From Clostridiales bacterium (lineage in GTDB: Bacteria > Bacillota > Desulfotomaculia > Desulfotomaculales > VENG01), in assembly GCA_016278505.1 (NCBI GenBank), contig JADQBQ010000005.1, positions 36,771-100,770 on the forward strand: a stretch of DNA of 64,000 nucleotides, read 5' to 3'. The notes under the pieces are model-generated. The model made no database searches. It had not been told where the DNA came from and saw only the letters and a program-made list of their open reading frames with translations. This document shows positions 4,841 to 55,933 of this stretch, in pieces. The position numbers and the translations under genes were made by a program. How positions within the stretch are numbered: position 1 is the stretch's first letter; each line of letters begins with the position of its first letter.

Positions 4841-4921
4841 ATATAACAAAACCGCCGAAATAAATTAATGCTAATAAATATTATATGCAAAGAAATAATG
4901 AGGAAAACAAGCAAAGCTAAA

Positions 4922-7241: not shown

Positions 7242-7628
7242 TTACCGTCCCATCATTCCATAGCCGTGACCGTTTCCTCTTTGCCCTCCGTCACTATATT
7301 GTGAATCTCCCATCATATAGTTGGAATCCATTTGATAATTATATTGCTGCATATAATTGAAATGATCTGACCATGTTTGGTTTTGATCGAAGTCCACATC
7401 AGTTTCTATTTCAGTTTCACCGGCACGATACTCTCCCCAATTGAACATATGGTTATCATATGCACCGGAATCTCCTCGTCCTACATACATGTCCTCGGAT
7501 GCCACGGCAGTATTTTGATGATTAGAAGACTGCATCATTGGTATCCCCCATGAAGCAAAAGCTGCCGGAGCCATAACACCAACAATTAACAGGGCACCTA
7601 AAGTCAAAGTTAATACTTTTCTTTTCAT
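7242..7628 (-). CDS. secreted Met/Gly/Tyr-rich small protein (family member 1)
   Basis: Signal peptide ending AFA-SW, a TWSDHFNYMQQYNYQM core and a GHGYGMMGR tail. Good SD (caggagg) precedes the ATG. Confidence 0.6.
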   Translation of the reverse strand: MKRKVLTLTLGALLIVGVMAPAAFASWGIPMMQSSNHQNTAVASEDMYVGRGDSGAYDNHMFNWGEYRAGETEIETDVDFDQNQTWSDHFNYMQQYNYQMDSNYMMGDSQYSDGGQRGNGHGYGMMGR

Positions 7629-7820
7629 TTAAAAAGTACCTCCTGAATTTAAATTTTAAGTTCAATAACATTAGGGGTTCCACGGCAATTATTCTTTTTT
7701 AGACCCCAGTTGTTATGTTATTTTCATCATATAAAATAAAAATAACAGCTCAAGGACGAAAGTATAACGATTTCTTCACAACTATGGGGACAGGCACCTT
7801 GGCATACTTTCCTAGACAAT

Positions 7821-18607: not shown

Positions 18608-18679
18608 ATTTTGTGCGCATCCCACTACAACTGATATTGCCAATATTAATACTAAAACCAATGGGCAAAATCGTTTCAA
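17696..18679 (-). CDS. tctC: TctC/Bug-family substrate-binding lipoprotein, copy 2
   Basis: 327 aa. It differs from copy 1 only in the signal peptide (lipobox VVGC). Confidence 0.9.
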   Translation of the reverse strand: MKRFCPLVLVLILAISVVVGCAQNGEEGKDEFNYPTKTIKYVVPFNPGGQSDLEARRQQKPLEEKLGVNVVIENKPGGGGAVGWSELVRKDPDGYYLTGMNIPHIILQPLARENAGYETDQVNPVALFQGTPIGLAVQPDSPYNTLDEFIEAGKAKPGQITVGGSGTYSGHHITLMQLQDKTGAEFQYVPSQGAAPSVQSYLGGHVDALLANSNDLVQHQDKMKILAIGSKERFEPLPDVKTFMEQDIDMTASIDRGVAVPPETDKRIIEKLEKAFLEIAKDEEIRAQMKEEGFLPLAMGAEESKQYINEMKDKYSAILEKVQAESK

Positions 18680-18819
18680 GGATACCCCCCCTAGTGTATA
18701 AATCTAAGATACTTAAAGTGTTCTATTTCACTAGTCATCAATATTAACTCATATACATAGATGGTTGTCTACCTGAACTTAATTCCATGAAAAATACTTC
18801 ATTTGTTTACATTGAATTC

Positions 18820-19989
18820 CTAAGCGCTGGGATACAATTTAGTCATGATGAACTCTTTATGCCCAAGAATTTCCGCACTCATCATACGACCGTTACATGC
18901 CCTTAACATCATATCCATCAATTTATCTCCCGCGCCCTCTAAATCCATTTCACGGCGCAATAAACCGGTAAGATCTACATCGATATGTTCGGACATGGTG
19001 GCGACTGTAATTGGGTTGGCACACAATTTAACCACCGGGATTACCGGATTACCTACAATATTTCCTTGCCCGGTGGGGAATAAATGCACCACCGCTCCTC
19101 CTGCGGCACACAGTGTAACCATTTCTGCCGCGGCAGAAGATGAATTCATAAAATGCAGCCCCGTGCCTTTGGGTGCCTCTGCCTCTTTTAGGGCACTTTT
19201 TACCATCGCTTTTCTGCCCATTTTTTGGATATTGCCTAACGCTTTTTCTTCAATAGTAGTTAAACCACCGGCAATATTACCCTGTGTTGGCTGAGATCCT
19301 AAAAGGTCAACTCCTTGACCCTCAATCAGATTCATGTAATCAGTATGCATTTTCAAAAATGCTTCTTTTACTTCCGGAGTAGCACATCTTTCAGCAACAA
19401 TGTCTTCTCCACCTGTTATCTCTGAGGTTTCACCAAAGATTGCCGTACCACCCCATTCCACTACCCGGTCAACCACTACACCTACAGTGGGATTTGACGC
19501 TAAGCCGGAAGTTGTATCCGACTCACCACATTTAACACTAACAGTGAGCTCCGAACCCCTGCATTCCACACGCTTTAGTTCGGTAGCATACTGCACGAAT
19601 TCATGAGCCTTGCGTGCAGCTGTTTCAATTGTTTTATACTGGCCGTTACGCTCAATGGCAAAACCAGCTACCGGCTTCCCGGTCTTAGCTATTCCATCCA
19701 CTATTTTGTTTGTCCAATTAGGCTCAATACCAATAACTACACAGGCAGCAATGTTTGGATTGCACCCGGTTCCAATCATGGTACGGAAAAATAGGTCTAA
19801 ATCTTCACCAAACTGCAAACGCCCATATGCGTGGGGCAAAGGTAATGTGCCTTGCACTATGCTGGCAACACCCTCAACAGCAGCGTTTGAAATGTCATCT
19901 AAAGCTAAAATTGCCACATGGTTCCTTACTCCTACACGCCCATTTTCACGCTTGTAACCGTAAAATATTGGTTCAGTCATTTTTACCAC
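18820..19989 (-). CDS. UxaA-family large subunit, diverged paralog of 11057..12217
   Basis: 389 aa, colinear with the other copy but with many substitutions ([19 protein letters not shown]...). Confidence 0.8.
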
Positions 19990-23218: not shown

Positions 23219-23407
23219 ACCTTATACACAAACTAGTATGAGAAAACTACATTTTTATGAAAGAAAGACTCCATAGTGCCAACACTAAAAAAGAAAGGGC
23301 AATTTTTGACGGGATTCTCGGGATAGAGATTAAAATAAAGAGAAAAGAAAAGGCAAACACATGAGACAGGATTCGAGGATAAAGGATTTAAAGATAGCGT
23401 TTTAAAA
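23207..23407. repeat. dispersed non-coding repeat, copy B
   Basis: Aligns with 4622..4840. The short reading frame seen in copy A is broken here after 8 codons. Confidence 0.8.
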
Positions 23408-23616
23408 GCTAATTGGTTATAAGGTTAAGCTTAAAAGAGTTAACTAAGCCATATAAGAAAAGATCCCGTTTTAACGGGATCTTTTCTTATTAAAGCTAAC
23501 CGATCTACGCTGTCTGTAAGACTCTCATTATCATAACATATCCGGTTTCATTTATTGCTACCTGATCTCCTACTTTCAGTTCATCAATAAATATACGGTT
23601 ACCGTCAGTGTCATAC

Positions 23617-24084
23617 TTACATTCCCATATTCCCAGAGCCCATGCCCCCACTGTGACCTGAACCCATACTATTGCTATTGCCGCCCATCATACCCCCAGC
23701 ATTACCTTGAACCTGTTTATTGTTGAACTGAGTTCCATGGGTATCGTTCATGTAATCATTCATTGCATCATGGTTTTGCTGCATTGTATCGTAGTTCATT
23801 TGCGCATCCATTTGAAACTGCCTCTGGCTATCAGGAGCTGCAGCGTCTTTTTGCTTTTGCACCCTGGTCTCTTTTTCTTTAGTCAACTGATCCATATAAG
23901 CACCGGGCTGCATTTTTATTTGTTGGGAATCCTGCTTGGTTACGGTATCACTTGACTGCTGAACTTGTGCCTGTGGTGCCTTGGCGCTCGGCTCGAACTG
24001 CATGGTACCGGCATACGAGACTCCCACCAAAGCCAAACCCATTGTCATCACTGAAACACCCGTTAATAATTTTTTTCCTATCAT
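23617..24084 (-). CDS. secreted Met/Gln/Asp-rich small protein (family member 2)
   Basis: Signal peptide, repeated Q/M/D motifs and a tail GGMMGGNSNSMGSGHSGGMGSGNMGM. Good SD (aggagg). Confidence 0.6.
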   Translation of the reverse strand: MIGKKLLTGVSVMTMGLALVGVSYAGTMQFEPSAKAPQAQVQQSSDTVTKQDSQQIKMQPGAYMDQLTKEKETRVQKQKDAAAPDSQRQFQMDAQMNYDTMQQNHDAMNDYMNDTHGTQFNNKQVQGNAGGMMGGNSNSMGSGHSGGMGSGNMGM

Positions 24085-24120
24085 CTAATTATGACCTCCT
24101 ATTTTTTGTGTTTTGCGGTT

Positions 24121-24154
24121 AGTTATTCGAAGCGTGTATCATTTTTGGGGAGGT
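24121..24154 (-). promoter_or_regulatory. candidate SigI-type promoter (C-rich -35, CGAA -10)
   Basis: The minus strand reads ACCTCCCC-N17-CGAATAACTAACCGCAAAAC, a block shared with 50471..50504 and 54916..54950. Confidence 0.45.
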
Positions 24155-24164
24155 CTTATTAATT

Positions 24165-24992
24165 TTATCCGCCTTGAACAGAGAAAAATAGAAGCACAGA
24201 TAATATCATTCCAATAGCAGTTATAACTATTGTTGTCACCATTCCGGACTTCTTTTGCATCACCGGAGGTAATGGGTATCTTGTTTTAAGCGCCAGGCTC
24301 AAAAAGAAACCTGCTGCTATGGTGATCAAGCTTAAGAGGTGAGACACAGAGAAGGGATCTATAATAACGGGATTGGTACGCAAGAATTCTACTGCTCCCC
24401 TGATTAAAGCATACCCAATAAGATAATGCACAAATATTTGCCCCTGATATTTTGCCCGGTCTCTTTTTAGCCAAAGGTAGGCAAATAATGAATAGTCCAA
24501 GAGCACCTCATAAATCTGTACAGGATGGACTAATGTGCCCCCAACCCATACACCCCATGGATAAACTCCCTCCATAGGAATTCCAAAAACATCACATCCA
24601 ATTCTGCCTATGGCCTGCCCTAAAATCAAAGAAGGAGCCAGAATATCAGCGAACTGCCACAAAGGTAATTTATTTCGCTTAATGTAGTATATTGCTACCA
24701 ATGAACCGCCTAGAATACCCCCGTGTATAGAGAGTCCCCCGTTCTGAATCATCACTATATCCAACGGGTTTTGGACATAGTACATAGGGCTATAAAAAAG
24801 AATATAGCCAAGCCTGGCACCAACAATACCACCCAGTAAAGTCCATACTGTAAGATCCAAGGCTTTGTCTGGAGGTAACCCTTTCCTACGTGCCTGCCAA
24901 ACTGTAAGCAAGATTCCAGCCAATGCACCCAGGGCAACCATCGCACCAAAGAAATATACTTCAAAAAACCCAAAGTCAAATAGTAATTTCAA
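24165..24992 (-). CDS. lgt: prolipoprotein diacylglyceryl transferase
   Basis: 275 aa with characteristic Lgt sequence (GGIVGARLGYILFY, GGLSIHGGILGG, GRIGCD). Confidence 0.9.
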   Translation of the reverse strand: MKLLFDFGFFEVYFFGAMVALGALAGILLTVWQARRKGLPPDKALDLTVWTLLGGIVGARLGYILFYSPMYYVQNPLDIVMIQNGGLSIHGGILGGSLVAIYYIKRNKLPLWQFADILAPSLILGQAIGRIGCDVFGIPMEGVYPWGVWVGGTLVHPVQIYEVLLDYSLFAYLWLKRDRAKYQGQIFVHYLIGYALIRGAVEFLRTNPVIIDPFSVSHLLSLITIAAGFFLSLALKTRYPLPPVMQKKSGMVTTIVITAIGMILSVLLFFSVQGG

Positions 24993-27176: not shown

Positions 27177-28662
27177 GTTTTGTGTAAATGGCTTCTTACC
27201 TTAAGTAATGGTTAAGCTATAAATGGCTCTTACCCGCAGGAGGGTACGGCTCTGCTGGAGAGCAACCGGAGCGCCTGACGGGGTTCTGCCGGGGGTAAGT
27301 AGGGGTACAAAAACAGTGCCCCCTTATCCTTTTAAATATACTTACCCTTGAGGAGAACAAGGCGTTAAACTCTTGGGGCTTCGCCCCAATAAAGGGAATT
27401 ATATAGCCAGTTCTGCTTTAAGCCTATCGGCAAAGTATATCCCAATCTGTGAAGCACATTCTTTCCAATCTCTTATAGGTATAGTCCACTTTTTAGCTAC
27501 TTCAACAGTTGCCAGATAGATTATTTTCCGAAGGGCATCATCAGTTGGGTATGTTGTCTTAGTCTTAGTTACTTTCCGCAACTGACGGTGGTAACCTTCA
27601 ATGATGTTGGTCGTATATATTGTCTTACGCATGGCATAAGGGTACTTAAAATATGCAGTTAATTCAACCCAGTTTGTCTCCCAGGATCGGATGATTATTG
27701 GGTGCTTCTTACCCCATTTTTCCTTAAACATTTCAAAGGCAAACTCGGCCTCTTCTATGGTTAACGCCTGGTATACTTGCTTAAGATCAGCTATTAATTC
27801 TTTACGTTCTTTGTGAGGGACATATTTTAAAGAGTTTCTGATTTGATGAACAATGCATAGCTGGATCTCTGTATTGGGAAATACGCTGTTAATGGCCTCA
27901 GAGAACCCGGAGAGCCCGTCTTTACAGGCAATCAGAATATCCTCAACACCTCTGTTCTTAAGGTCATTGCATACACCAAGCCAGAAACTGGCGCTTTCAT
28001 TCTCACCAATCCAGATGCCTAATATGTCCTTATGGCCGTCCATATTTACAGCTAGCACGCTATAGGCAGCTTTGTTTATGATCCGGTTTTCCTTGCGTAC
28101 CTTGAAGTGTATGGCATCTAAAAAAATGATTGGATAAACACGGTCTAGCGGCCGTGACTGCCACTCAGAAATCATGGGCATGATCTTATCGGTCACTTTA
28201 CTGACCATGGTGGGGGATACATCAATACCGTAGATGTTCCGCATGTGGTCTTCGATATCACGAGTGGACATGCCTTTGGCATACATGGCTATGATCTGGT
28301 CTTCTAGCTGGTTTGAAGTAGTCTCATACTTCTTGATAATCTGAGGCTCAAACTCTGCATTACGGTCTCGAGGTAGCCTCAGCTCTGTTTTACCAAGCCT
28401 GGTTTGGATAGTTTTCTGGCTATAGCCATTACGGCTGTTACCGGTATTGTTGCCTTCAACATTGTGTTTCTGATAGCCAAGATGGTTTTCTATTTCACCC
28501 TCGAATATTTCTTGCAGGGTGTCCTTAAACAAGCCTTTGAGCATTTCATGTACGTCATCAACTGTGCGGCATTCTTGTGCCAGTTCCTTGATTGTTTTGT
28601 CCTTCACGTTTTGCATAAATGGTCAGCTCCTTTATTGGTAGTTATAACCATTTACACAAAAC
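27177..28662 (-). mobile_element. IS256-family insertion sequence (~1.49 kb)
   Basis: Terminal inverted repeats gttttgtgtaaatgg (27177-27191) and ccatttacacaaaac (28648-28662) flank the transposase gene. Confidence 0.8.
27399..28616 (-). CDS. IS256-family (mutator-type) transposase
   Basis: 405 aa with the typical IS256 motifs PRDR...FEP.I..K, YPIIFLDAIHFKVR and C.VHQIRNS. Confidence 0.9.
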   Translation of the reverse strand: MQNVKDKTIKELAQECRTVDDVHEMLKGLFKDTLQEIFEGEIENHLGYQKHNVEGNNTGNSRNGYSQKTIQTRLGKTELRLPRDRNAEFEPQIIKKYETTSNQLEDQIIAMYAKGMSTRDIEDHMRNIYGIDVSPTMVSKVTDKIMPMISEWQSRPLDRVYPIIFLDAIHFKVRKENRIINKAAYSVLAVNMDGHKDILGIWIGENESASFWLGVCNDLKNRGVEDILIACKDGLSGFSEAINSVFPNTEIQLCIVHQIRNSLKYVPHKERKELIADLKQVYQALTIEEAEFAFEMFKEKWGKKHPIIIRSWETNWVELTAYFKYPYAMRKTIYTTNIIEGYHRQLRKVTKTKTTYPTDDALRKIIYLATVEVAKKWTIPIRDWKECASQIGIYFADRLKAELAI

Positions 28663-28665
28663 GAA

Positions 28666-29334
28666 TTACGTTCTCTTAAAGATTTTCTTAGCGCGACTAA
28701 CTCGTTTCCTAAATTTAACATTACTTTCACGTTCACCTAATATCGCGGCCATTTCCGCTGTTGTGAATCCTTGATAAACTAGTCCAATAATTTCCGAATA
28801 TTGCGGTTTTACTTCGTGAAATTCTCTCATAACTTGTTTTACAGTTTTGCTTGTTGTAATTATGTCCTCAATATCTGTTTGACTTGCTAACGTGTCGCCA
28901 AGAGTTTTAATTGTTTCTTCTTTATTATTAATTAGACGGTCTAACGAATCATTGCGGGCTTTATCGTAACGGATTCCGTCTTTATCTTCGTTATTTCCTC
29001 TAACGCGATATTGCCGCCAAACGTTAGGTCTATATCGTTTTTGAAGGAAATAATAAAATCTTTGAATGAAGTTGCTTTGTCCGTTGAATTCTTTGGCGGC
29101 AGTCCAGACAGCCATCGAAAATGCACTTTCAAAATCTTTAACAGGTATTGTTAAACCATATTGCGCTGCTTTGAAGGTTTCTTTTCGGGCTTCGTTGGTA
29201 ACCAAGGGTTTCATCTCGGCGAACAGGTCGGTAAACACTTCTTCGCCCCCATTAGTAGCAAACTCTAACGCCAATTCATTGATCTTTTGGTTATCCAATT
29301 GATTAACATGTCCATATTCCATTGTGAAAAACAA
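28666..29334 (-). CDS. sigma-70-like factor of mobile-element/phage type (tentative)
   Basis: A region-2-like block (AVWTAAKEFNGQSNFIQRFYYFLQKRY) and a C-terminal HTH (FTTAEMAAILGERESNVKFRKRVSRAKK). The likely start is the ATG at 29320. Confidence 0.5.
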   Translation of the reverse strand: MFFTMEYGHVNQLDNQKINELALEFATNGGEEVFTDLFAEMKPLVTNEARKETFKAAQYGLTIPVKDFESAFSMAVWTAAKEFNGQSNFIQRFYYFLQKRYRPNVWRQYRVRGNNEDKDGIRYDKARNDSLDRLINNKEETIKTLGDTLASQTDIEDIITTSKTVKQVMREFHEVKPQYSEIIGLVYQGFTTAEMAAILGERESNVKFRKRVSRAKKIFKRT

Positions 29335-33803: not shown

Positions 33804-34663
33804 GGTGTCAGGGGGACGGGGTTATTGACACTCCTATGCTTTTAAAACAATACCCCTATTGATACCTGTAATCCTTTCTATTTGTCTAATTGATAAGCTA
33901 TATTCTTCTTTTAGTTCCTTCAAATATGTATTTCTTGTTAATCTATCAAGTTTATGTAAATGAGGTGTATCCTTTACTTTACATACTGTTTTAATTATAT
34001 TTCTTGCTTCTTCATCCATTATTCGATGCTTTTCTTCTATATCTAAACATTCATTATAATTCACTTTACTATTATATTGTATAAAACTCTTTGTTGCCTG
34101 TTCTTTATCACTGTTAAATAGTTCAAGAGCGAAATCTACATTAACTATTTTTGTTTTATTTACATATTCATTAAAGCTGCTCCATTTATATTGATCAATA
34201 CTTTTTACTAATCCGGCTTTAATTGGGTTTTGGTGTATATATCTCTGAACAATTAGAAAATATGTATCATCCTCTACCGGTTCACTTTTAAATCTGTCTT
34301 GAAATAGGTTTCCTACTCTTTGATATTTACAATTGTACCAATAAACATAGCTGCCGCATATCCTACACATCACTTGTTCCAGCGGTTCCTTATCGATTTT
34401 TAATAGCAGATGCACATGATTTCCCATCAAGCAGTATGCATAAATTTCATATTCGCTTTTTTCTTTATAACGCTGTATTGTGTGAATAAATTTTACACAA
34501 TCTTCTTCGTCTTCAAAAATGGTCTGCCGGTTTATTCCTCTCATCATTATATGGTATATCCCGCTTTCACTTTTCTCCCTAGCCTTTCTTGGCATAAATA
34601 CACCTCCAACCTATGCTACCTTAGACTGGAGATGGTTGTCAATAACCCCGTCCCCTTGACACC
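33804..34663 (-). mobile_element. RAYT / IS200-like Y1-transposase unit bounded by 27-bp inverted repeats
   Basis: ggtgtcagggggacggggttattgaca (33804-33830) is the reverse complement of tgtcaataaccccgtccccttgacacc (34637-34663) with 1 mismatch. Confidence 0.6.
33834..34595 (-). CDS. REP-associated tyrosine transposase-like (IS200/IS605 Y1 family)
   Basis: 253 aa with YHIMMRGINRQTIF...YCLMGNHVHLLL...YIHQNP, the HUH and Y1 signature regions. Confidence 0.8.
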   Translation of the reverse strand: MPRKAREKSESGIYHIMMRGINRQTIFEDEEDCVKFIHTIQRYKEKSEYEIYAYCLMGNHVHLLLKIDKEPLEQVMCRICGSYVYWYNCKYQRVGNLFQDRFKSEPVEDDTYFLIVQRYIHQNPIKAGLVKSIDQYKWSSFNEYVNKTKIVNVDFALELFNSDKEQATKSFIQYNSKVNYNECLDIEEKHRIMDEEARNIIKTVCKVKDTPHLHKLDRLTRNTYLKELKEEYSLSIRQIERITGINRGIVLKA

Positions 34664-46965: not shown

Positions 46966-48282
46966 ATGGGAAAAAGAAAACTTGCTATTTTAATCGCTAT
47001 TTTAGGCCTGCTGCTATTATCCGTTTTCGTTGGGTGGATGTATCAGGCAAGACCGTATAAAGAAGTATTTGCAGTGAAAATTGACGGCGAACTAATTGGA
47101 TATGTTGAAGAACCCGGCATGATAGAAAAAGAGATTAATTTTATTGAAAACGAACTTCATAATAAGGGATACCCCAAAATTAATTTGAAGGAAAATGTTC
47201 AGACCACCCCGGAAAGAAAAAAGGATGCGGAACTTTTTGACAGCCAGGAGTTACGATCAATTTTGGAGGACAAGCTTACTTTTAGCACACAGGCAACAGC
47301 GATAATTATTGACGGTAAAGAAATTATGGCAGTCCAAAACCAGGCTGCTGCCCGTTCAGTTTTGGAAGTATTGAAGGACAGATATTCCACACAGGACACC
47401 CAAAAAGTATCGTTTAAGGAAGAAATCAGTTATTCTGACCGGCAGTTTTCCGTAAAATTAATCCGCACTAAGCTTGAAGCAGCAAACTATCTCCTTGACT
47501 TACAAAAATCTGTTTCATATGAAGTAAAGAAAGGCGATACTATATGGAGTATAGCTAACAAGAATAGCTTGAGTGAGAAAGATATTATTAACGTGAACCC
47601 TTCCATTAATCCTGAATTAATAAAACCAGGTGAGAGAATTATTTTACCAGGGAAAAAAGCCTTAACGGTAATTACCACAGAAAAGAACAGTTCCAAGGAA
47701 AAGGTTCCATTCAAGACAGAATCTCAATGGAATTCTTCATTGCCATACGGAAAAACAAAAGTTGTCAGAAACGGCAGTCCGGGGCTGAAACAGGTAGTAT
47801 ACGAAGTCACTTTTTATAACGGTATCAAAGTAAAAACAAATAAGCTTTCAGAAAAAATAATTGAAGAGCCGGTAAACAAAATAATAGAAAAAGGCTCTCA
47901 ACGACAAGTCTCCCGCAGCGGGCGATTCATTCGCCCCACAACCGGTCCCATTTCTTCTTATTTTGGGCCAAGATGGGGAACAACTCACAGGGGAATTGAT
48001 TATGCCGCACCCTATGGGGAAGCTGCTAAAGCATCTGCTTCAGGTACCGTAAACTATGCCGGCTGGGCAAATGGCTATGGGCAAGTAGTTTATATTCAAC
48101 ACCGAAACGGCCTAACAACAAGATATGCACATCTTTCCAAGGTAGCAGTGTCTAGCGGGCAGCAAGTTGCCGGGGGACAAGTAATTGGCCAAGTTGGGGC
48201 AACCGGGAATGCAACAGGTCCCAACCTTCATTTTGAAGTAAGGAAAAATGGGATACCACAGAACCCGTTAAATTATCTCTAG
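46966..48282 (+). CDS. M23-family peptidoglycan metalloendopeptidase with LysM and G5-like domains
   Basis: LysM (YEVKKGDTIWSIA...), a G5-like block, and the M23 motifs HRGIDYAAP and GPNLHFEVRKNG. Confidence 0.85.
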   Translation: MGKRKLAILIAILGLLLLSVFVGWMYQARPYKEVFAVKIDGELIGYVEEPGMIEKEINFIENELHNKGYPKINLKENVQTTPERKKDAELFDSQELRSILEDKLTFSTQATAIIIDGKEIMAVQNQAAARSVLEVLKDRYSTQDTQKVSFKEEISYSDRQFSVKLIRTKLEAANYLLDLQKSVSYEVKKGDTIWSIANKNSLSEKDIINVNPSINPELIKPGERIILPGKKALTVITTEKNSSKEKVPFKTESQWNSSLPYGKTKVVRNGSPGLKQVVYEVTFYNGIKVKTNKLSEKIIEEPVNKIIEKGSQRQVSRSGRFIRPTTGPISSYFGPRWGTTHRGIDYAAPYGEAAKASASGTVNYAGWANGYGQVVYIQHRNGLTTRYAHLSKVAVSSGQQVAGGQVIGQVGATGNATGPNLHFEVRKNGIPQNPLNYL

Positions 48283-48549: not shown

Positions 48550-48894
48550 ATGGGTGTTCTACCAAATTCGCCTAAATCTATGGATAACTGTATTGAGGAG
48601 TGTGTAAAATGTGCAAGAGCCTGTGATGAGTGTTTTACGGCTTGCATGGGAGAACCTGATGTAAAAGACAGAATTCAATGCATTAAAACTCTTAATGACT
48701 GTGCCGAAATCTGTGTGCAAGCCGTTCAATATATGTCCAGGAACAGCCTTCATGCTAAGTCTTTATGTGAGGTATGTGCTGAAATTTGCGAAGCTTGTGC
48801 CAAAGAATGCGATAAATTTCATGATGAACATTGTAAGGAATGTGCAAGAATCTGCCGTGAATGTGCACAAGCTTGTAGGGAAATGGCCGTTTAG
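48550..48894 (+). CDS. Cys-rich four-helix-bundle copper-binding-type protein (DUF326 family)
   Basis: 114 aa with repeated C..C...C...C heptad-like motifs (CIEECVKCARACDEC, CAEICVQA, CAEICEACAKECD, CKECARICRECAQAC). Confidence 0.8.
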   Translation: MGVLPNSPKSMDNCIEECVKCARACDECFTACMGEPDVKDRIQCIKTLNDCAEICVQAVQYMSRNSLHAKSLCEVCAEICEACAKECDKFHDEHCKECARICRECAQACREMAV

Positions 48895-48986: not shown

Positions 48987-49352
48987 TTAATTGGAATTGT
49001 AATTTCCGTTCATTCCGTAGCCGTAACCGCCCATCATGCCCATCATACCGTTATAACCCATCTGGTTATGGAAGTCATTCATGTAAGCAAAGTGGTCCTG
49101 CCATGCTTGGGCTTGTGCTGGATAGTTATAGTTACGCCCTTTCGATGAGGAATCCTGGGGTGTGTCTTGACCGGTATCAACAGCGTCATCTGCTGCAGGC
49201 ATTACCGTCATGTCCTGGTAATCTGCATTCATCACATTTGGATAATTGCTTGTGTCCATCCGGGCACTCTGCCACGATGCAAAGGCTGTTGGTGCCACAA
49301 TAGCTGCAACCAGTAAAACTCCTAAAATCAATATCCATACTTTTCCTTTCAC
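48987..49352 (-). CDS. secreted Met/Gly/Tyr-rich small protein (family member 3)
   Basis: GTG at 49352 lies 7 nt after ggagg. Signal peptide ending AFA-SW, an AWQDHFAYMNDFHNQM core and a GMMGMMGGYGYGMNGNY tail. Confidence 0.6.
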   Translation of the reverse strand: MKGKVWILILGVLLVAAIVAPTAFASWQSARMDTSNYPNVMNADYQDMTVMPAADDAVDTGQDTPQDSSSKGRNYNYPAQAQAWQDHFAYMNDFHNQMGYNGMMGMMGGYGYGMNGNYNSN

Positions 49353-49460
49353 GCTCTTACCTCCATTAAAAATTATCTTATTGAGATAATTATACCAAGC
49401 CAAAGTTACATACCAAGAACGAAATCGTTACATTAATTTAACAACCATATCATTATGACT

Positions 49461-49646
49461 TCAGCCTTTTCCATGCTGGTGCTTATCATTACTACAGCAG
49501 TCACCTGGTTTTTTTTCGGAAGCGGCATGATCACCAGATTGGTCTGAGTGATCATGCCCACCGCAGCACCCACCTTTCCTACTCATCATCCAAACCATAA
49601 GCCCGCCAATTAAGATGTAAGGAAGAAAATTATACAAGGAATCCAC
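49461..49646 (-). CDS. small membrane protein with Cys/His-rich tail (DUF2933-like)
   Basis: 61 aa with one TM followed by GGCCGGHDHSD...DCCSNDKHQHG. Confidence 0.5.
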   Translation of the reverse strand: MDSLYNFLPYILIGGLMVWMMSRKGGCCGGHDHSDQSGDHAASEKKPGDCCSNDKHQHGKG

Positions 49647-49823
49647 TTTTTCTCACCACCTTCTAACATAAATATTTTCATACTTAATTTTATCCATCTA
49701 CTATCACAATTCTATTACAAATCACTGAACTCTTTATAACATCGCTTAATGATTAAAAGCAGTCATAAACAATATAAGACACCCCTTTTAAGGGATGTCT
49801 TATATTGTTTCTCTTAAGTTATA

Positions 49824-50387
49824 TTAACGGTGCATTCCACCATTGCTGCTCCCACCTGAATGGGAATTGCTGCTGTCAGCTTTTTGCATTTGGTCAGTCA
49901 TGTCAGCCTGCACATCTACCATCTGATCCTGCATATCTTTTTGTACATCAGACATCTGTGCTTGCATATCTTCATGAACTTCAGTCATATCTTGAGTGTC
50001 TACATTGTTGGCTTCATGAACATCCTGCATTTGCTTCTGTAATTCAGCATCATTCGTCATTTCAGTTCCCATCTGTAAGTTAGCTGAACTATCTTCATCT
50101 TCATCTGTAACTGCATCATCATTGTTTTCATTATTAGCTTCATCGTCTGCTTCCTCTTCATCGGTGGTAGCTTCATCTTCTGTTTCATCAACATCATCTG
50201 TGTTTTCATCGCTAGCTTCATCTTGATCTGCGGATGTAGTGTTTACATCTTCCATTGCAGCATTCATCTCATCTACAGTCATCTGTGCATTACTAACAGT
50301 AGCCGCGTTCGCTATACCGACAAGTGCAATTCCTAATACAATTATAAAGAATGTCAACAACAACCTATGCTTTCCCATCTTTGCCAT
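49824..50387 (-). CDS. secreted acidic Met/Asp/Gln-rich protein (family member 4)
   Basis: The ATG at 50387 has SD ggagga. Signal peptide, a poly-acidic stretch, repeated D/M/Q/V-H motifs and a tail GGSSNGGMHR. Confidence 0.55.
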   Translation of the reverse strand: MAKMGKHRLLLTFFIIVLGIALVGIANAATVSNAQMTVDEMNAAMEDVNTTSADQDEASDENTDDVDETEDEATTDEEEADDEANNENNDDAVTDEDEDSSANLQMGTEMTNDAELQKQMQDVHEANNVDTQDMTEVHEDMQAQMSDVQKDMQDQMVDVQADMTDQMQKADSSNSHSGGSSNGGMHR

Positions 50388-50470
50388 GCTTAATTCCTCC
50401 TTAAGTAATAAATAAATTAGATTTAAAGTTATACGGCTTTTTAACTCACCTCCCTTTGCCGTTTTCAATT

Positions 50471-50504
50471 AGTTATTCGAAGATGTTAATTAATTTAGGA
50501 GGGT
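50471..50504 (-). promoter_or_regulatory. candidate SigI-type promoter
   Basis: The minus strand reads TTACCCTCC-N18-CGAATAACTAATTGAAAACGGCAAAG. Confidence 0.45.
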
Positions 50505-50716
50505 AATTACTAAATCCAGGCTATAAATTATTTTGTTATTAATAAACCGGCTTAGTGGCTGGTTCCCCTTGGCTGATTTTTTAAAATCTGTTAGTGGTAT
50601 GGCAATTTATACACTTGAGTTATTTTAAAAAAACGTTAAAATGGAATATAGTCGACATTTCTGCAGCACTTACATTTTACATTTCGGTACTTTAGAATTG
50701 AAAGGTTGAGAAATAA

Positions 50717-52165
50717 ATGAAGATGTTTAAGAAAAGCATAATGCTTCAATTGTGGCTGGTAATGACTTTGCTTGTTTTAACGACTTTATGGCTAATCGGT
50801 TTTGTACAAACAAAAGTACTCGAACAAACCTATTACGGCCAGCATATTAACCAACTGACCATAGAAGGACAGAAGGTAGTAAATAAAGTACAATCTGGTG
50901 AAAACCCTGCTGATTTGAGTACACTCTCTCATATACTGGGGTTGAATATTATGATTGTTAATGAAGAGGGTTATATACAGGAGTGCCGGGGAATGGGCAT
51001 GGACATGTCCCCCGGGACAGATGTCGATGTGTTTGGTCATCACGGGATCCCTTGGGGAAAAGAAGAGTTTGAGAAAATCCTGCAGGGAGAAGAAATGCAT
51101 TATATAGGGAGAAACACCTTAATTGACCAGGATGTGCTTTCTGTCGCTCTACCATATCAGGCTCCACAGGAAAAGGGTATGGTCATGGTGAGCGCCCCCC
51201 TTGCCCCTATTACCGAAAGAGTATCAATATTACAAAGAGTGACTGTTTATACAGGAATCGGGGGCATCCTTTTGGCAACCCTGCTGAGCCTTTTTCTCTC
51301 CCGCAGTGTGTCGTTCCCCCTGGTAAAAATGAATAAGGTTGCCTCTGCTATATCAAGGGGTGATTACAGCAACCGGCTTAATATTTACCGAGAAGATGAA
51401 ATAGGTGTATTAGCAAATACCCTGAATTCCATGTCACAGGAAATTGAAGAAAAGATATCGGCCATCGAAAGAATGGATAACGCCAGGCGTGATTTTATAG
51501 CTAATGTTTCTCATGAACTGCGAACGCCGCTGTCGGTGATGCAGGCATGTAATGAAGCGTTAACGGATGACATAGCTGAAACAGAGGAAGAAAGACAGGA
51601 ATACCTGGAAAGCATTAATCAGGAAATTTTACGATTACGTCGCCTTGTTTCTGAGGTACTGGATTTACGTAAATTAGAATCCGGAAATGCGGATTTCAGT
51701 TTCTACCCGGTAAATGTTACGTCACTAATACACGAAGTTACAAAGATATTTAATACGGTTGCCTTGAAAAAAAATATCGATTTGCAGTTAAACCTGGAAG
51801 GAGAAGTGCCGGACATTAGGGCAAACAAAGATAAGATTAAGCAGGTTTTTGTCAACCTCTTGGATAATGCTATGAAAGCAACCCCGGAAGGCAGCAATAT
51901 AAAGGTAGAAATGGCAAAGGCCAATGGGTTTGTCAAATTTGAGGTTAAAGATTCCGGTACTGGAATTGACCAAAATGAACAACAGCTTATCTGGGAAAGG
52001 TTCTATAAAGCAGACAAATCCAGAAACCGCTCCGGCTTCGGAACCGGCCTTGGCTTGCCTCTTGTTAAAAGGATTGTGGAAGCTCACGGAGGGGAAATCT
52101 GGGTTGAAAGCTCCCCTGGTGAAGGCGCAGCCTTTATTTTCACACTTCCCGCTGTCACCGACTAA
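50717..52165 (+). CDS. sensor histidine kinase (HAMP-HisKA-HATPase)
   Basis: H-box VSHELRTPL and G box GTGLGLPLV. Convergent with the OmpR-type regulator. Confidence 0.85.
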   Translation: MKMFKKSIMLQLWLVMTLLVLTTLWLIGFVQTKVLEQTYYGQHINQLTIEGQKVVNKVQSGENPADLSTLSHILGLNIMIVNEEGYIQECRGMGMDMSPGTDVDVFGHHGIPWGKEEFEKILQGEEMHYIGRNTLIDQDVLSVALPYQAPQEKGMVMVSAPLAPITERVSILQRVTVYTGIGGILLATLLSLFLSRSVSFPLVKMNKVASAISRGDYSNRLNIYREDEIGVLANTLNSMSQEIEEKISAIERMDNARRDFIANVSHELRTPLSVMQACNEALTDDIAETEEERQEYLESINQEILRLRRLVSEVLDLRKLESGNADFSFYPVNVTSLIHEVTKIFNTVALKKNIDLQLNLEGEVPDIRANKDKIKQVFVNLLDNAMKATPEGSNIKVEMAKANGFVKFEVKDSGTGIDQNEQQLIWERFYKADKSRNRSGFGTGLGLPLVKRIVEAHGGEIWVESSPGEGAAFIFTLPAVTD

Positions 52166-52217
52166 TGAAAAGAGAGGAAGGCCCTAAATGGACCTTCCTC
52201 CCTCAATTTCTCTTTAA

Positions 52218-52925
52218 CTATTTCTTGCCCTCGGATGGTGGCTCAAACTTATAACCCACTCCCCAAACAGTATTAACATAAGATGTCTCATTACTGGCCG
52301 TGGCCAATTTTTCTCGCAAGCGATTAATATGGGTGTCTACCGTTCGCGCGTCACCTAAATAATTATACCCCCATACCGACTCCAATATATTTTCTCTGCT
52401 AAAAATCCTGCCGGGTGAACCTGCCAAAATGTATAGGATATCAAACTCTTTAGGTGTAAGTGTTACATTTTGATCATTGATAATGACCTTCCGAGTGTCA
52501 AGATTTATGGATATACCCTCAAAAGTTAAAATACTTTTCTTATCCTGTGAAGAACTTTTATCTGCAGCCCGTCTTAGCACCGCCTTTACCCTGGCCACCA
52601 ACTCCCTGGGTGAAAACGGCTTTACAACATAGTCGTCCGCCCCCATTTCAAGTCCTAAAATCCTGTCAATCTCATCCTCCCTCGCCGTTAGCATAATTAT
52701 AGGGACATCACTGGTCTTTCTTAACTCGCGACAGACTTCCCAACCATCGGCTCCCGGCATCATGATGTCCAGAACAACCAGATCCGGACTGCATTTTTTA
52801 AATTCTTCTATGGCATCCAGACCGTTAGAGCACTCAATAACATTAAAATCTTCTTTCTCCAAATATTTTTTAACAATTTGACAGATCTTTTCCTCATCAT
52901 CTGCAATTAAAACCGTATTTTTCAC
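52218..52925 (-). CDS. OmpR/PhoB-family response regulator
   Basis: Receiver domain (ADDEE...VLDIMMPG...KPF) plus a winged-helix output domain (TVDTHINRLREKL...VWGVGYKF). Confidence 0.9.
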   Translation of the reverse strand: MKNTVLIADDEEKICQIVKKYLEKEDFNVIECSNGLDAIEEFKKCSPDLVVLDIMMPGADGWEVCRELRKTSDVPIIMLTAREDEIDRILGLEMGADDYVVKPFSPRELVARVKAVLRRAADKSSSQDKKSILTFEGISINLDTRKVIINDQNVTLTPKEFDILYILAGSPGRIFSRENILESVWGYNYLGDARTVDTHINRLREKLATASNETSYVNTVWGVGYKFEPPSEGKK

Positions 52926-53002
52926 AAGCTACCACCTTTTTCTGCAAATTATCTTAAAAAGATATTACCACATATCAATACTATCTCTCAAATTAAAGTT
53001 AA

Positions 53003-54115
53003 TTAATGTCCATTCTCCATGTATTGATTCATTTGATCAGTATTAGGCATATTTCCTTCGTACCAGTCTTCATGCACCCTGTAATCAGAGCGATCCTGCT
53101 TTTTATCTTCAGTTGTTGCCGAATGCATGTTATCGTCCGGTTCATTTACATTATTCATCATAGGAATGTCATTCATTTCATTCACCTGCATGCCGGTATC
53201 GTTGGTAGAATCATTATCCCCCGACATACCATTCATATTATTACCGTGATTAGGCATTTCGTTGCCCTGGCCATCTTCATTCACGCTGCCTGGCATTTCA
53301 GAATTGTTTTGCATATGGTTATTGTTTTCTTTATTCATTCCTGTTTCATAGTGATATCCCTCAAACATTGAGCTTACCTCTTTGCTTTCTGTTAGTTCCA
53401 TCATGTTTCTGTCATTCATTTCCTCAGCAGAAATATTGTTTCCTATTTCATGATAACGGTTCATAACCATATACCTGTTCACGGACAAGCCTTCGTTTAA
53501 AGCTTTTTCCCGCTCTTTTTCACTACTCATTTGGATGGAAACATAACCGTTAAGTTTTTTCTCCTTAAAGGTAGCATCAATAACCGCTTGTAGATCCTTC
53601 TTGTTTACAGCATTATAGTTATCCATCGGTACCACACTAGCCAAGACCACATTATCCTTATCGTCCTTAATAAACCCTTCCGATGCCGCTCTTTCCATAA
53701 TCAAATTCACCGCTTTATATACATCAACTTCTTTTAAATCCAGCTCATCCAAGAGTTTTTGACCACCTTCGTTATACGACCGTGCACCTATCACCCTGGC
53801 ATCTTTGTCCACTTCCAATTCCAAACTGGGGTTGAAATCCAAGGCTACGTAGGCTGATGCCGGAACCGAAAATACCGTTAAATATATGCCCAGGAACATG
53901 AATAAGGCCAAAACCGCAGCAGCAGCGGGCATAAAACCTCTTACAAACATTTTTTGTTTATGTTTTTTTGTTTCGTTTGTAAAGACCTCTATTATTTCTC
54001 CAGGGTTTACAGCATGCGGCGGTGCAGGCACTTCCAAAAACTGACCATGGCAGGTATAGACGGTTACTTTGTCTTTGTTTTTATTCATTTCCATTACAAC
54101 GCCGGAAGTTTTCAT
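53003..54115 (-). CDS. rsgI: RsgI-like anti-sigma-I factor with Met/Asn/Asp/His-rich C-terminal extension
   Basis: RsgI_N-like start (GVVMEM..DKVTVYTCHGQFLEV), a single TM, and AYVALDFNPSLELEVD...NEGG...EKALNEGLS, which is colinear with B. subtilis RsgI as recalled. Confidence 0.7.
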   Translation of the reverse strand: MKTSGVVMEMNKNKDKVTVYTCHGQFLEVPAPPHAVNPGEIIEVFTNETKKHKQKMFVRGFMPAAAAVLALFMFLGIYLTVFSVPASAYVALDFNPSLELEVDKDARVIGARSYNEGGQKLLDELDLKEVDVYKAVNLIMERAASEGFIKDDKDNVVLASVVPMDNYNAVNKKDLQAVIDATFKEKKLNGYVSIQMSSEKEREKALNEGLSVNRYMVMNRYHEIGNNISAEEMNDRNMMELTESKEVSSMFEGYHYETGMNKENNNHMQNNSEMPGSVNEDGQGNEMPNHGNNMNGMSGDNDSTNDTGMQVNEMNDIPMMNNVNEPDDNMHSATTEDKKQDRSDYRVHEDWYEGNMPNTDQMNQYMENGH

Positions 54116-54134
54116 GGTAACACCTTCTTGTTGT

Positions 54135-54845
54135 TTATTGAGGAAAGGTCGTAAAATGCTTCAATCCCGACAGTTCCGGTTCAGTTAAAATCAGTGTCAA
54201 TGCAATTATATACTTTCTACCTTTCTCTATCACCTTACGACTATAACCAGTGCCTTTACATAGCTCTTTTACAGGCAGCCGTTTCCTTTCAGTGAGTTGT
54301 TCAAGTAATTCTTGATCATTCTGAAGATACTTTGCCGCCTGCATAAGGTTTTCCCTGGTATCCCTGTGTTTGGGAGAACAACTAACTAAATCCTTGAACG
54401 TTATCCCATAGCCATCCAGTTTAGTATTGAATACAGCCACTGTTTCAGAAAGGTCTGCCTGTTTTTCTTCATTTTCGAAATTTGTTATAGAAACATCTCT
54501 TTCACCTTTACTAAATTCACTATTCTCGGGATCAATAGGGATAAGGGAAGCATGTTTTTCCTTTGCTTCTTTTCTGAAGTAATCCACCAAACGTCGGTGA
54601 ATTACTTGGTAAGCAAAAGAAGTAAAAGAGGTTTTGCCGCTAGAATCATAAGAATCTATAGCTTCATTATAAGCTAATAAGGCAATGCTTAGTTCTTCAT
54701 CCACTCCCCATTCAAGGTAACGTTTACAAACGTTGGAACCTACTTTTGCAATGAATGGTTTGCCGTCCTCAATAATTTTTTCCCGCGCCCACTCATCACC
54801 GGTTTGGGCCTCTTTAATCATTTTGTCGTTAACCTGTTTGCGCAA
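54135..54845 (-). CDS. sigI: RNA polymerase sigma-I-type factor
   Basis: 236 aa sigma-70 family protein directly upstream of the RsgI-like gene, with SigI-like region 2 (SIALLAYNEAIDSYD...SFTSFAYQVIHRRLVDYFRKE). Confidence 0.75.
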   Translation of the reverse strand: MRKQVNDKMIKEAQTGDEWAREKIIEDGKPFIAKVGSNVCKRYLEWGVDEELSIALLAYNEAIDSYDSSGKTSFTSFAYQVIHRRLVDYFRKEAKEKHASLIPIDPENSEFSKGERDVSITNFENEEKQADLSETVAVFNTKLDGYGITFKDLVSCSPKHRDTRENLMQAAKYLQNDQELLEQLTERKRLPVKELCKGTGYSRKVIEKGRKYIIALTLILTEPELSGLKHFTTFPQ

Positions 54846-54915
54846 ATTTATTCACTCCAACCCTTTTGGGATCTAATAAGAATGACAGTGGATGGAGCTT
54901 TGCCGTTTTTCACCC

Positions 54916-54950
54916 AGTCATTCGAAACATTCCGCATTGTTTAGGGGGGT
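54916..54950 (-). promoter_or_regulatory. candidate autoregulatory SigI-type promoter
   Basis: The minus strand reads ACCCCCC-N19-CGAATGACTGGGTGAAAAACGGCAAAG, about 75 nt upstream of the sigI start. Confidence 0.5.
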
Positions 54951-55160
54951 ATGTATACTGTGATTAACTGTGATTATAAAAAAAAACATTGAACAAACTT
55001 GCTCGCAGGTTTAACAATTCTGTTACAAAAAACAAACAGATTATGCCCGCCCCCAATTCAACAGCAAATCCTTAACACTAATGTAAAGTTTGCGCCAAGT
55101 TTTTGTAATTTTGATGATCTATAATAAAGACAATAAAACCAAGAGCACTTCGACAAAAAG

Positions 55161-55433
55161 ATGGGAGGTATATTTATGCACATGTTTTATGGCGCCTCGG
55201 GATTCGGTTTCTTGCAAATGCTTATACCGATGCTGATATGGCTTGCTGTTGTTATGGGAATGATTCACTTAGTCTCGCGGTGGTTTGGTGGTCAAAGAAA
55301 ATTTCCTAAAGAGGAAAATCTACAGCCTAGTGCAGATAATTCGTCTATTGAGTTATTAAATAGGCGTTATGCCTCAGGTGAGTTAACAACCGAGGAATAT
55401 ATAGCCATGAGGGAAGAAATCAGGGGCTACTAA
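55161..55433 (+). CDS. SHOCT-domain membrane protein
   Basis: Two hydrophobic helices, then LLNRRYASGELTTEEYIAMREEI, the SHOCT motif. Confidence 0.65.
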   Translation: MGGIFMHMFYGASGFGFLQMLIPMLIWLAVVMGMIHLVSRWFGGQRKFPKEENLQPSADNSSIELLNRRYASGELTTEEYIAMREEIRGY

Positions 55434-55531
55434 TCTTATTAGGTGTAAAGTAATTGTTTTACTTTTGCCATAACTTCGTGACATTTACCTTTTATAATTA
55501 GAGTAAATCAAATTCATACGGAGGCGATAAA

Positions 55532-55933
55532 ATGAAAAAACTTATGATCCTAACAGTAGCAGCACTTTTAATGGGTACACTGCTTATCCCGGCTGCATTC
55601 GCGGAGACACCTGAATACGGTGATTGGTTTGACCAAATGTTCCAATGGCATAACCAGTGGGTAGATGATGCGGTGGAAAACGGCCAAATGACCGAAGAGC
55701 AAGCCGAAGCCTGGCAAGACCATTTCAATTACATGAAAGACTTCCACAGCCAATATCCCATGGGAATGATGATGGGCGGCTATGGTATGATGGGACCCGG
55801 TTACGGTGAAAATGCAGGCTACGGCGGCTACATGGGTTCCGGTTCCGGTTATGGAATGGGTGGCTACGGCGGCATGATGGGACAGGGTTATGGAATGGGC
55901 GGTTATGGATACAGCCCTAACAATTCAAACTAA
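55532..55933 (+). CDS. secreted Met/Gly/Tyr-rich small protein (family member 5)
   Basis: Signal peptide ending AFA-ET, an AWQDHFNYMKDFHSQY core and a long (G/M/Y)n tail. Confidence 0.6.
   Translation: MKKLMILTVAALLMGTLLIPAAFAETPEYGDWFDQMFQWHNQWVDDAVENGQMTEEQAEAWQDHFNYMKDFHSQYPMGMMMGGYGMMGPGYGENAGYGGYMGSGSGYGMGGYGGMMGQGYGMGGYGYSPNNSN

Follow-up and report, generated by a model that had tools for sequence, protein, structure and literature searches.

We analysed a 64,000-nucleotide stretch of contig JADQBQ010000005.1 (the window; coordinates count from its first letter), whose host is an uncultured member of Desulfallaceae-like Clostridia. The window carries sigI, encoding a sigma factor, rsgI, encoding a membrane protein with an anti-sigma domain, and two genes for secreted Met-rich proteins, here called target 1 and target 2. 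A candidate sigma-I-type promoter precedes sigI and each of the two target genes. The features concerned are as follows, with bit scores from the weight matrix described below.

54910..54950, minus strand: PsigI, candidate sigma-I-type autoregulatory promoter (ACCCCCCTAAA, 15 nt, CGAATGACT; predicted start ~54911/54910; 21.1 bits)
54135..54845, minus strand: sigI, 236 aa, TTG start at 54845 (NCBIfam and structure match)
53003..54115, minus strand: rsgI, 370 aa, with anti-sigma N-domain, one transmembrane helix, SEAL domain with N95/P96 site and low-complexity tail
53006..53395, minus strand: RsgI extracytoplasmic tail, residues 241-370 (130 residues), ending QMNQYMENGH
50465..50504, minus strand: Pt1, candidate sigma-I-type promoter (ACCCTCCTAAA, 14 nt, CGAATAACT; predicted start ~50466/50465; 21.05 bits)
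49824..50387, minus strand: target 1, 187 aa, with signal peptide (ANA/AT), acidic disordered region, Met-stripe helix and Gly/Ser tail; ribosome-binding site AAGGAGG
49780..49806, minus strand: intrinsic terminator after target 1 (predicted stem 49794-49782, extended by reading)
24115..24154, minus strand: Pt2, candidate sigma-I-type promoter (ACCTCCCCAAA, 14 nt, CGAATAACT; predicted start ~24116/24115; 23.5 bits, the best of the window)
23617..24084, minus strand: target 2, 155 aa, with signal peptide (SYA/GT), Gln-rich region, Met/His helix and Gly/Met tail

The initial annotation had named a sigI-rsgI module, and this identity is borne out by curated models, homologues of solved structure and the cleavage motif. 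SigI scores above the cut-offs of NF006175 SigI (289 bits, cut-off 244) and TIGR02895 (200 bits, cut-off 185) and consists of a sigma-2 domain and the SigI-specific C-terminal domain. Its residues 9-221 align with the open-complex structures of SigI6 (8i24_F, E 6e-42) and SigI1 (2e-34). Additionally, the PKHRD motif, whose His inserts into the minor groove of the A-tract (PMC10575876), is conserved, with SPKHRDT here aligned to TPKHRDS of SigI6. rsgI lies directly downstream on the same strand (sigI stop 54135, rsgI start 54115). Another sigma-like open reading frame (ORF) of the window, 28666-29334, was considered as a SigI paralogue and is not one.

RsgI matches RsgI_N (PF12791, 31.1 bits, cut-off 25) and RsgI_M/SEAL (PF23750, 109.5 bits). 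Between the two domains lies a single transmembrane helix, FMPAAAAVLALFMFLGIYLTVFSVP, at residues ~61-85, as read from the sequence by eye. The N/P self-cleavage site, located at N97/P98 in Bacillus subtilis RsgI (PMC10556640), corresponds to a DFN95/P96S motif that is invariant in six relatives, and in the alignment P96 coincides with the first residue of the cleaved C-terminal chains in the RsgI2 and RsgI9 structures (8heq, 8hdj, 8u9o). After residue 218 no Pfam domain is found, and the tail is of low complexity by composition (N 18%, M 12%, E 11%, D 9%, H 5%) and poorly conserved. Because this low-complexity tail contains no detectable domain, the architecture would be of the B. subtilis disordered-tail type, not of the carbohydrate-binding type. 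The disordered-tail RsgI of B. subtilis senses cell-wall defects (PMC9732909).

For comparison, we used the loci of Desulfoscipio geothermicus (L001, the closest named genome; SigI 65% identical), L011 (RsgI ~50% identical), a Carboxydocellales metagenome-assembled genome (MAG) serving as the outgroup (L002; SigI 46% identical) and MAG GCA_009711705.1 (L019), a near-identical close relative with ~98% DNA identity across the locus. A scan of the genome collection with SigI returned two loci only. Relative to L019, the RsgI sensor appears to be under relaxed or diversifying selection: rsgI (10001-11113 in L019) differs by 5 synonymous and 16 non-synonymous codon changes, and the tail alone by 2 and 10, versus 10 and 2 for sigI and 12 and 3 for the response regulator gene described below. 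Separately, a 61%-identical RsgI relative in L005 (9192-10246; also in L006-L010) is split into a 68-aa RsgI_N ORF and a 283-aa SEAL ORF. No sigI was called upstream of it and no sigma-I-type site there exceeds 12.4 bits, and this locus may be a decaying module.

The three promoter blocks quoted in the initial annotation are present letter for letter on the minus strand, with spacers of 19, 18 and 17 nt. They read ACCCCCC-N19-CGAATGACTGGGTGAAAAACGGCAAAG before sigI (54950-54903), ACCCTCC-N18-CGAATAACTAATTGAAAACGGCAAAG before target 1 (50504-50459) and ACCTCCCC-N17-CGAATAACTAACCGCAAAACACAAAA before target 2 (24154-24107). The -35 ACCCCC and -10 CGAA(W) named in that annotation agree with the published consensus, which is ACCCCC--AA-N15-CGAA----T for Bacillales sigma-I and CCCYYAAA-N13-14-CGWA for Clostridium thermocellum sigma-I3 (PMC4711584). 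When the sites are aligned on the literature A-tract, the distance from AAA to CGAA is 15 nt for sigI and 14 nt for each of the two targets. Thus aligned, all three fit the consensus, with a C-rich region and A-tract, 13-15 nt, CGWA and a T five bases after CGAA; the CGAA elements are at 54921 (PsigI), 50476 (Pt1) and 24126 (Pt2). Furthermore, the C. thermocellum sigI2 promoter (CCCCCGAAA...CGAAATAACT) and sigI3 promoter (CCCCTCAAA) closely resemble these sites.

All three blocks are intergenic and directed at the downstream gene. In C. thermocellum, the mapped start sites of sigI1 and sigI6 lie 10-11 nt after CGAA (PMC4711584); we borrowed this offset, and the starts it predicts here fall on the G of GAAAAC or GCAAAAC, giving predicted 5' untranslated regions of 66 (sigI), 79 (target 1) and 32 nt (target 2). 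The same offset bears on the "conserved leader" of the initial annotation. The sequence is indeed shared, but the label of leader would largely not hold: since the C. thermocellum starts map 10-11 nt after CGAA, the 3' part of the block would consist mostly of the discriminator and the initial ~13 nt of the transcript. An Rfam scan of the whole window finds no known RNA family, so none of the leaders is a known riboswitch.

Beyond the promoter, the sigI leader (54845-54905, minus strand) holds a conserved CTCCATCC able to pair with the ribosome-binding site GGTTGGAG, as well as a GGCAAAG complementary to the TTTGC located at the TTG start. Both hairpin arms are conserved in three species (equivalents at 9940-10008 in L001 and 9215-9283 in L011). 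The hairpin shows no covariation and has a fold z-score of -0.7; a role in translational control, for example as a thermometer, is conceivable.

As a loose pattern the motif is not rare. CC[CT]CC-N15-21-CGAAT occurs three times versus 1.17 times in dinucleotide shuffles; the shared 13-mer TTCGAATRACTRR is rare, with three occurrences versus 0.02. Because loose regular expressions were not significant, and to avoid circularity, we scanned with a two-block weight matrix trained only on seven sigI promoters from outside the window, three from orthologous loci (L001, L011 and L002) and four published Clostridium promoters. The scan covered both strands (128,000 positions) with spacers of 13-15 nt. 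Its top three distinct matches are the three blocks, with 23.5 (24152), 21.1 (54948) and 21.05 bits (50502), and the next distinct match in the 64-kb window, inside the kinase gene, reaches 14.0 bits. In first-order Markov simulations, 0.022 sites of at least 21 bits are expected per window, and none of 400 simulated windows held two or more. The motif is thus not at background frequency, the independently trained matrix ranking the three blocks first to third. In the window plus 20 kb of flanks (10 kb at each end, ~84 kb of genome in total), no site above 16 bits exists besides the three.

These data also bear on the possibility that only PsigI is functional, with the Pt1 and Pt2 blocks being fortuitous or decayed and the targets using other promoters or read-through from lgt. 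Loose versions of the motif are common, as seen above, and ~2% of the simulated windows contain one chance site reaching 21 bits or more. Moreover, target 2 lies only 80 nt behind lgt (24165-24992; Pfam LGT) with no terminator between, and Pt2 begins within this gap, 11 nt past the lgt stop codon. In contrast, two extra sites of this strength never arose together in the simulations, and both Pt1 and Pt2 lie between genes in the proper orientation, with strong ribosome-binding sites at a distance of 32-79 nt. No comparable sigma-70-like promoter was found directly upstream of either target on the same strand, and none lies on the Pt2 strand within the gap between lgt and target 2. Finally, target 1 relatives in two other contigs carry the top-scoring site of their contig, as described next. 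We therefore regard a functional PsigI without Pt1 and Pt2 as extremely unlikely. Two other identities of the blocks were rejected. As response-regulator operators or a duplicated mobile element they fail, since the same block precedes sigI where the adjacent two-component system is absent and the spacers are unrelated; as extracytoplasmic-function (ECF)-type promoters (AAC-N16-17-CGT) they do not fit in spacing, by inspection.

The sigma-I-type promoter upstream of sigI is kept in L001, L011, L002 and L019, and L001 and L011 also keep the extended -10 TTCGAATAA and the leader segment CGGYAAGACTCCATCCA. The autoregulation put forward in the initial annotation is supported in silico by the conservation of this promoter in the orthologous loci L001, L011 and L002. 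Pt1 is retained in L019 with two substitutions, both outside the core elements. Word-index homologue searches gave nothing for target 1, whose own sequence is not indexed either, and only near-identical copies for target 2. An exhaustive HMMER search of 1.84 billion representatives gave two weak relatives of target 1, P0024 and P0025. P0024 (pairwise E 2e-15 to target 1) is encoded on L141, which has its own sigI-rsgI 7 kb away, with a SigI 47% identical to that of the window. The best matrix match of L141 (24.8 bits) places a CGAA ~80 nt upstream of P0024, and the second-best (20.3 bits) precedes a gene for a LysM-Hydrolase_2 cell-wall hydrolase. Similarly, P0025 lies on a 1-kb contig (L144) whose best match (19.1 bits) has its CGAA ~60 nt upstream of the gene. 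Accordingly, a sigma-I-type promoter is predicted before all three detectable members of the target 1 family, in both of the other contigs as the top-scoring site, and this is the strongest support for the regulon idea. Collectively, we consider it highly probable, as judged from promoter sequence and conservation, that the window holds three sigma-I-type promoters through which SigI drives sigI-rsgI and both targets.

Outside the window, about 4.5 kb to its right, a weak site (L016 14909-14940, plus strand) has a good extended -10, CGAAATAACT, the same as in C. thermocellum sigI2, and no C-rich/A-tract -35; it lies 86 nt before the gene of a 242-aa lipoprotein with a Met-rich C-terminus (MDMSNMIEQMPDMSQ). 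A DNA-pattern scan of metagenomes for the promoter returned at least 120 apparently chance matches, and among the matches listed none was near a sigI or rsgI gene.

The initial annotation described the two targets as unusual secreted low-complexity Met-rich proteins, and both the description and the coordinates are right. Mature target 1 contains 9% and mature target 2 11% Met, versus a window median of 2.5%. In AlphaFold2 single-sequence predictions, an acidic stretch of ~65 residues in target 1 is disordered and is followed by a helix at 131-173 (pLDDT 72-90), in which 7/7 Met fall within an 80-degree arc (p 0.0002). For target 2, AlphaFold2 predicts a helix at 85-129, with pLDDT 76-82 over residues 91-110 and its best confidence over the Met/His segment; in this protein each of the three His has a Met at i-4 (p 0.0007). 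In both models, regions of low pLDDT lie on either side of the Met-rich helix. A core of M-x3-M, then M-x3-H, then M-x3-H-x2-M is common to target 1, P0024 and target 2, and M-x3-H is enriched over shuffles of their own composition (p 0.037 for target 1, 0.013 for P0024 and 0.0007 for target 2). The signal peptides of these three proteins and of P0025 are also alike, centred on LGIA(L/M)VG(I/V)ANA. The two targets thus have a common signal peptide and short Met/His motifs, with no clear full-length homology. Searches of Pfam, NCBIfam and the PDB with both targets yielded only noise, with no family, fold or PDB relative. Because target 1 differs from its L019 counterpart by an in-frame 8-codon indel (an insertion in L019) and by 15 synonymous and 10 non-synonymous changes, it appears to be coding and fast-evolving. 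By their sequence, both targets are predicted to be monocistronic, Sec-exported and lineage-restricted.

Just after target 2, at ~23490-23600 on the minus strand and in another frame, lie the last 36 codons (YDTDGNRIFIDELKVGDQVAINETGYVMIMRVLQTA) of a gene for 81 aa, whose intact form stands beside rsgI in L011 (11318-11563); the 5' half of this gene may have been displaced by target 2. Just past a likely terminator hairpin downstream of target 2, a stretch of ~200 bp (23207-23407) overlaps the 3' end of a 749-aa ORF (20969-23218) by ~12 nt. It recurs with 84% identity at 4622-4841, ~18.5 kb away, just downstream of an MFS transporter gene (2912-4543).

Taken together, we propose that the locus encodes a SigI-RsgI pair of the disordered-tail type, responding to an envelope or cell-wall signal and driving its own operon and two secreted Met-rich proteins; we place this reading, as predicted from sequence, at roughly 60%. 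For the signal by itself, a cell-wall or envelope defect or stress, drawn by analogy, has in our view somewhat less than an even chance. The B. subtilis precedent favours it, as do the L141 site before a hydrolase gene and the envelope neighbours of the locus, namely pspA, lgt and the genes for an M23/LysM/G5 peptidase and a MacB-type pump.

If the pathway works as in B. subtilis and C. thermocellum, RsgI would be constitutively self-cleaved at N95/P96. A change sensed by the RsgI tail would pull off the cleaved ectodomain, and the site-2 protease RasP/RseP would then cut the membrane stub. The freed SigI would amplify its own operon and turn on both secreted proteins, with transcripts starting ~10-11 nt after CGAA.

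Several observations weigh against this proposal. The host is documented by metagenomes alone. There is no diverged orthologue of target 2, and its near-identical copy in L012 has a 100% identical and hence uninformative upstream region, which leaves Pt2 without comparative support. The sigI-rsgI loci of L001 and L011 have no second sigma-I site within 10 kb. None of the cell-wall genes in the 84 kb scanned, including that of the M23/LysM peptidase (46966-48282), has a sigma-I site in front of it. The initial annotation had read the locus as one whose visible targets are not cell-wall genes; this stands for the ~84 kb, but cell-wall targets may exist, as the L141 site before a LysM hydrolase illustrates. 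Finally, B. subtilis-type tails are described as hydrophobic-depleted, and a generic disordered sensor does not explain a Met content of 10-12%.

This Met content, together with the genes around the locus, bears on the nature of the signal. The neighbouring features are listed below.

55532..55933, plus strand: Met/Gly-rich secreted protein with motif AWQDHFNYMKDFH; context gene, no sigma-I site; 1-mismatch WalR-type box at 55444-55460
55161..55433, plus strand: SHOCT-domain membrane protein (Pfam SHOCT), divergent from sigI; synteny in L001, L019 and L141
55011..55027, minus strand: WalR/OmpR-type direct repeat TGTAACAGAATTGTTAA, a perfect TGTWAH-N5-TGTWAH, 61 nt upstream of the sigma-I -35 of sigI
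52218..52925, minus strand: OmpR-family response regulator (Pfam Response_reg and Trans_reg_C), 77 nt after rsgI with no terminator between
50717..52165, plus strand: sensor histidine kinase, HAMP-HisKA-HATPase (Pfam), convergent with the regulator gene and divergent from target 1
49461..49646, minus strand: 61-aa membrane protein with a Cys/His-rich tail, CCGGHDH...CC; context gene
48987..49403, minus strand: Met/Gly-rich secreted paralogue with motif AWQDHFAYMNDFHNQM; context gene, no sigma-I site; perfect WalR-type box at 49427-49443
48550..48894, plus strand: Cys-rich DUF326 protein (Pfam DUF326, E 1e-13; NCBIfam Csp1, 44.5 bits, below the cut-off of 100); context gene
7242..7628, minus strand: third Met/Gly-rich secreted paralogue; no sigma-I site

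The three Met/Gly/Tyr-rich paralogues share W-x-DHF-x-YM-x-DFH, with His, Met and His at i, i+4 and i+8 in two of the three, and end in GYGMMGG-type tails. Such genes accompany sigI-rsgI in the window, L001, L011 and L019, and orthologues of 55532-55933 flank it in L001 and L011; of the relatives examined, only L141 lacks them. Copper-handling genes are also found at these loci. In L011 they are a copper-type P-type ATPase and a CsoR/RicR-like repressor, and in L141 a Cys/His-rich small membrane protein, SHOCT and a CPC-motif ATPase. The L141 small protein is divergent from sigI, beside the SHOCT and Cu-type ATPase genes, and by eye resembles the 61-aa protein of the window (hydrophobic N-terminus, CCGGH...CC). 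The window counterparts are this 61-aa protein, the Csp-like DUF326 protein (below cut-off) and SHOCT.

With the same hardware, the signal could instead be a thiophilic metal, Cu(I) or Ag(I), bound by a Met/His RsgI tail, with the targets as secreted Met/His sponges resembling SilE/PcoE but unrelated to them. An envelope two-component system controls SilE and PcoE, which act as disordered Met/His sponges (PMC5008109). The RsgI tails of the window, L001, L011 and L141 contain 10-12% Met and 3-5% His, in contrast to 0% Met in the tail of the outgroup L002. The M-x3-H and M-x3-H-x2-M motifs shared by target 1, P0024 and target 2, with Met at i-4 of 7/9 His, and the Met stripe on the predicted target 1 helix would suit such a role. 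Moreover, target 2 contains a segment, MNDYMNDTH, similar to the C-terminus of RsgI (MNQYMENGH). The pattern YM.[DN].H has only four instances in the six-frame translation of the window, namely in the RsgI tail, target 2 and two of the Met/Gly-rich secreted paralogues, and is thus confined to these Met-rich proteins. Copper genes adjoin three of the four such loci (L011, L141 and the window). However, no copper ATPase gene is preceded by a sigma-I-type site, the targets hold few His (3-4), Met positions in the RsgI tails are only partly conserved, and M...H is not enriched in the window's own RsgI tail. The gene neighbourhood is circumstantial, with DUF326 below the Csp cut-off, and the second L141 site would drive a cell-wall hydrolase. 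Copper sensing in Firmicutes is normally cytoplasmic (CsoR/CopY), which also counts against a metal signal at RsgI. We consider the metal signal unlikely, and keep it alive because of the conserved Met-rich tails, the Met/His motifs and the copper-gene linkage.

A more specific form of this idea would make this RsgI a member of a distinct clade of RsgI proteins, in which the disordered Met/His tail senses Cu(I)/Ag(I). Metal-induced folding, or cross-linking to Met-rich wall proteins, would pull SEAL apart; sigma-I would then induce a new secreted Met/His family that buffers wall metal and competes with the tail, giving negative feedback. This family would have a conserved signal peptide, a hypervariable body and the M-x3-H-x2-M core. 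In this full form, the idea is rather improbable.

The same Met-rich composition would also be compatible with Met oxidation as the signal, with tail and secreted proteins acting as oxidant sensors and sinks in an obligate anaerobe, where hydrophobic Met would turn into polar Met sulfoxide and the Met-only hydrophobic face of the target 1 helix would be destroyed. The case is compositional only. No methionine sulfoxide reductase or oxidative-stress gene is present among the annotated neighbours, and oxidation leaves both the Met-His pairing and the copper-gene linkage unexplained; we judge it very unlikely.

Next to the proposed envelope-responsive SigI-RsgI pair, the locus also shows signs of another regulator. 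Perfect WalR-type boxes number three in the window versus 0.65 expected. Like sigI (box at 55011-55027, minus), each of the three Met/Gly-rich genes and the small Cys/His-rich gene has a box of this type upstream (together 49427-49443, minus; 55444-55460, plus; 7731-7747, minus; and 49703-49719, minus), and the boxes are conserved in orthologous loci (L001 9751-9767 and 8537-8553; L011 16565-16581 and 4672-4688). The sigI box is identical at 16/17 bases upstream of sigI in L001, and in B. subtilis WalR binds upstream of sigI (PMC7478892). In L011, a regulator encoded next to pspA and a Met/Gly-rich gene shares 73% identity with the response regulator of the window, and the L011 kinase (17713-19170) shares 37% with the kinase. 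The order rsgI-regulator recurs in L013, and in L019 an insertion of 480 bp separates rsgI from the regulator gene. These predicted boxes suggest a second, two-component input to the locus. The OmpR-family regulator beside rsgI probably acts on sigI and the Met/Gly-rich genes through the TGTWAH-N5-TGTWAH boxes.

Elsewhere in the window, a 2,951-bp direct duplication with 99.8% identity (7864-10814 and 15673-18623) comprises the tctC-tctA-tctB tricarboxylate transporter genes. The region between the target loci looks rich in mobile elements, with a Mutator-family transposase (27399-28616, minus), an IS200-like transposase (33834-34595, minus) and HEPN and PIN genes.

We then compared the locus with known systems. 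As in the SigI-RsgI system of B. subtilis, whose targets are sigI-rsgI, mreBH, lytE and bcrC, both proteins have the same domain order, SEAL has the same N/P self-cleavage site, and a low-complexity tail without a detected folded domain follows SEAL. The autoregulatory promoter likewise fits ACCCCC--AA-N15-CGAA----T, a WalR-type box lies upstream of sigI, and the LysM hydrolase site in the relative L141 parallels lytE (PMC7478892). In contrast to B. subtilis, the tail here is Met-rich (12%) and not hydrophobic-depleted, the visible predicted targets are orphan secreted low-complexity proteins and not mreBH, lytE or bcrC, and an OmpR-family regulator and a kinase are encoded beside rsgI, with repeated copper-gene linkage. 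The SigI1-8/RsgI1-9 polysaccharide sensors of C. thermocellum (Acetivibrio thermocellum) provide the closest solved structures, SigI6 and the RsgI2 SEAL, and share the promoter architecture of A-tract plus CGWA. However, RsgI here lacks a carbohydrate-binding or glycoside-hydrolase sensor domain, the window holds one pair versus a paralogue family, and the predicted targets are not cellulosomal enzymes.

The likeness to SilE/PcoE is a functional analogy, not a family assignment. Like these proteins, the targets are small, exported (signal peptides read by eye) and predicted to be largely disordered, with Met/His at i/i+3-4 on helix-prone segments, and their expression is predicted to be tied to an envelope signalling system. 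They differ in showing no sequence relationship in the Pfam, NCBIfam and PDB searches, in having 3-4 His versus 10, in their Gram-positive host and in predicted sigma-factor control versus CusRS/SilRS, and metal binding here is hypothetical. For the Met/Gly-rich neighbours only, DUF2680/YckD offers a comparison: both are small with signal peptides, and 55532-55933 matches DUF2680 weakly over W-x-DHF-x-YM-x-DFH (E 0.002, below the gathering score). These neighbours differ in a long Gly/Met/Tyr tail outside DUF2680 and have WalR-type boxes and no sigma-I promoters. By its sequence, then, the system is a SigI/RsgI family member in which both the Met-rich tail and the predicted output are unusual.

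Few bacterial pathways are believed to be driven by mechanical force across the membrane, and to our knowledge sigma-I/RsgI is among them; we know of only two inputs, cell-wall gaps and plant polysaccharides, and only two outputs, cell-wall enzymes and cellulosome genes. The present locus suggests a third flavour, in which the sensor tail and the predicted products are both Met-rich extracellular low-complexity sequences, with repeated copper-gene linkage. Experiments would be feasible, as Desulfoscipio geothermicus DSM 3669, a culture-collection strain, carries an orthologous sigI-rsgI. If the link is true, it becomes testable whether the composition of the disordered RsgI tail encodes signal specificity, and the locus would define a new, fast-evolving family of secreted Met/His proteins.

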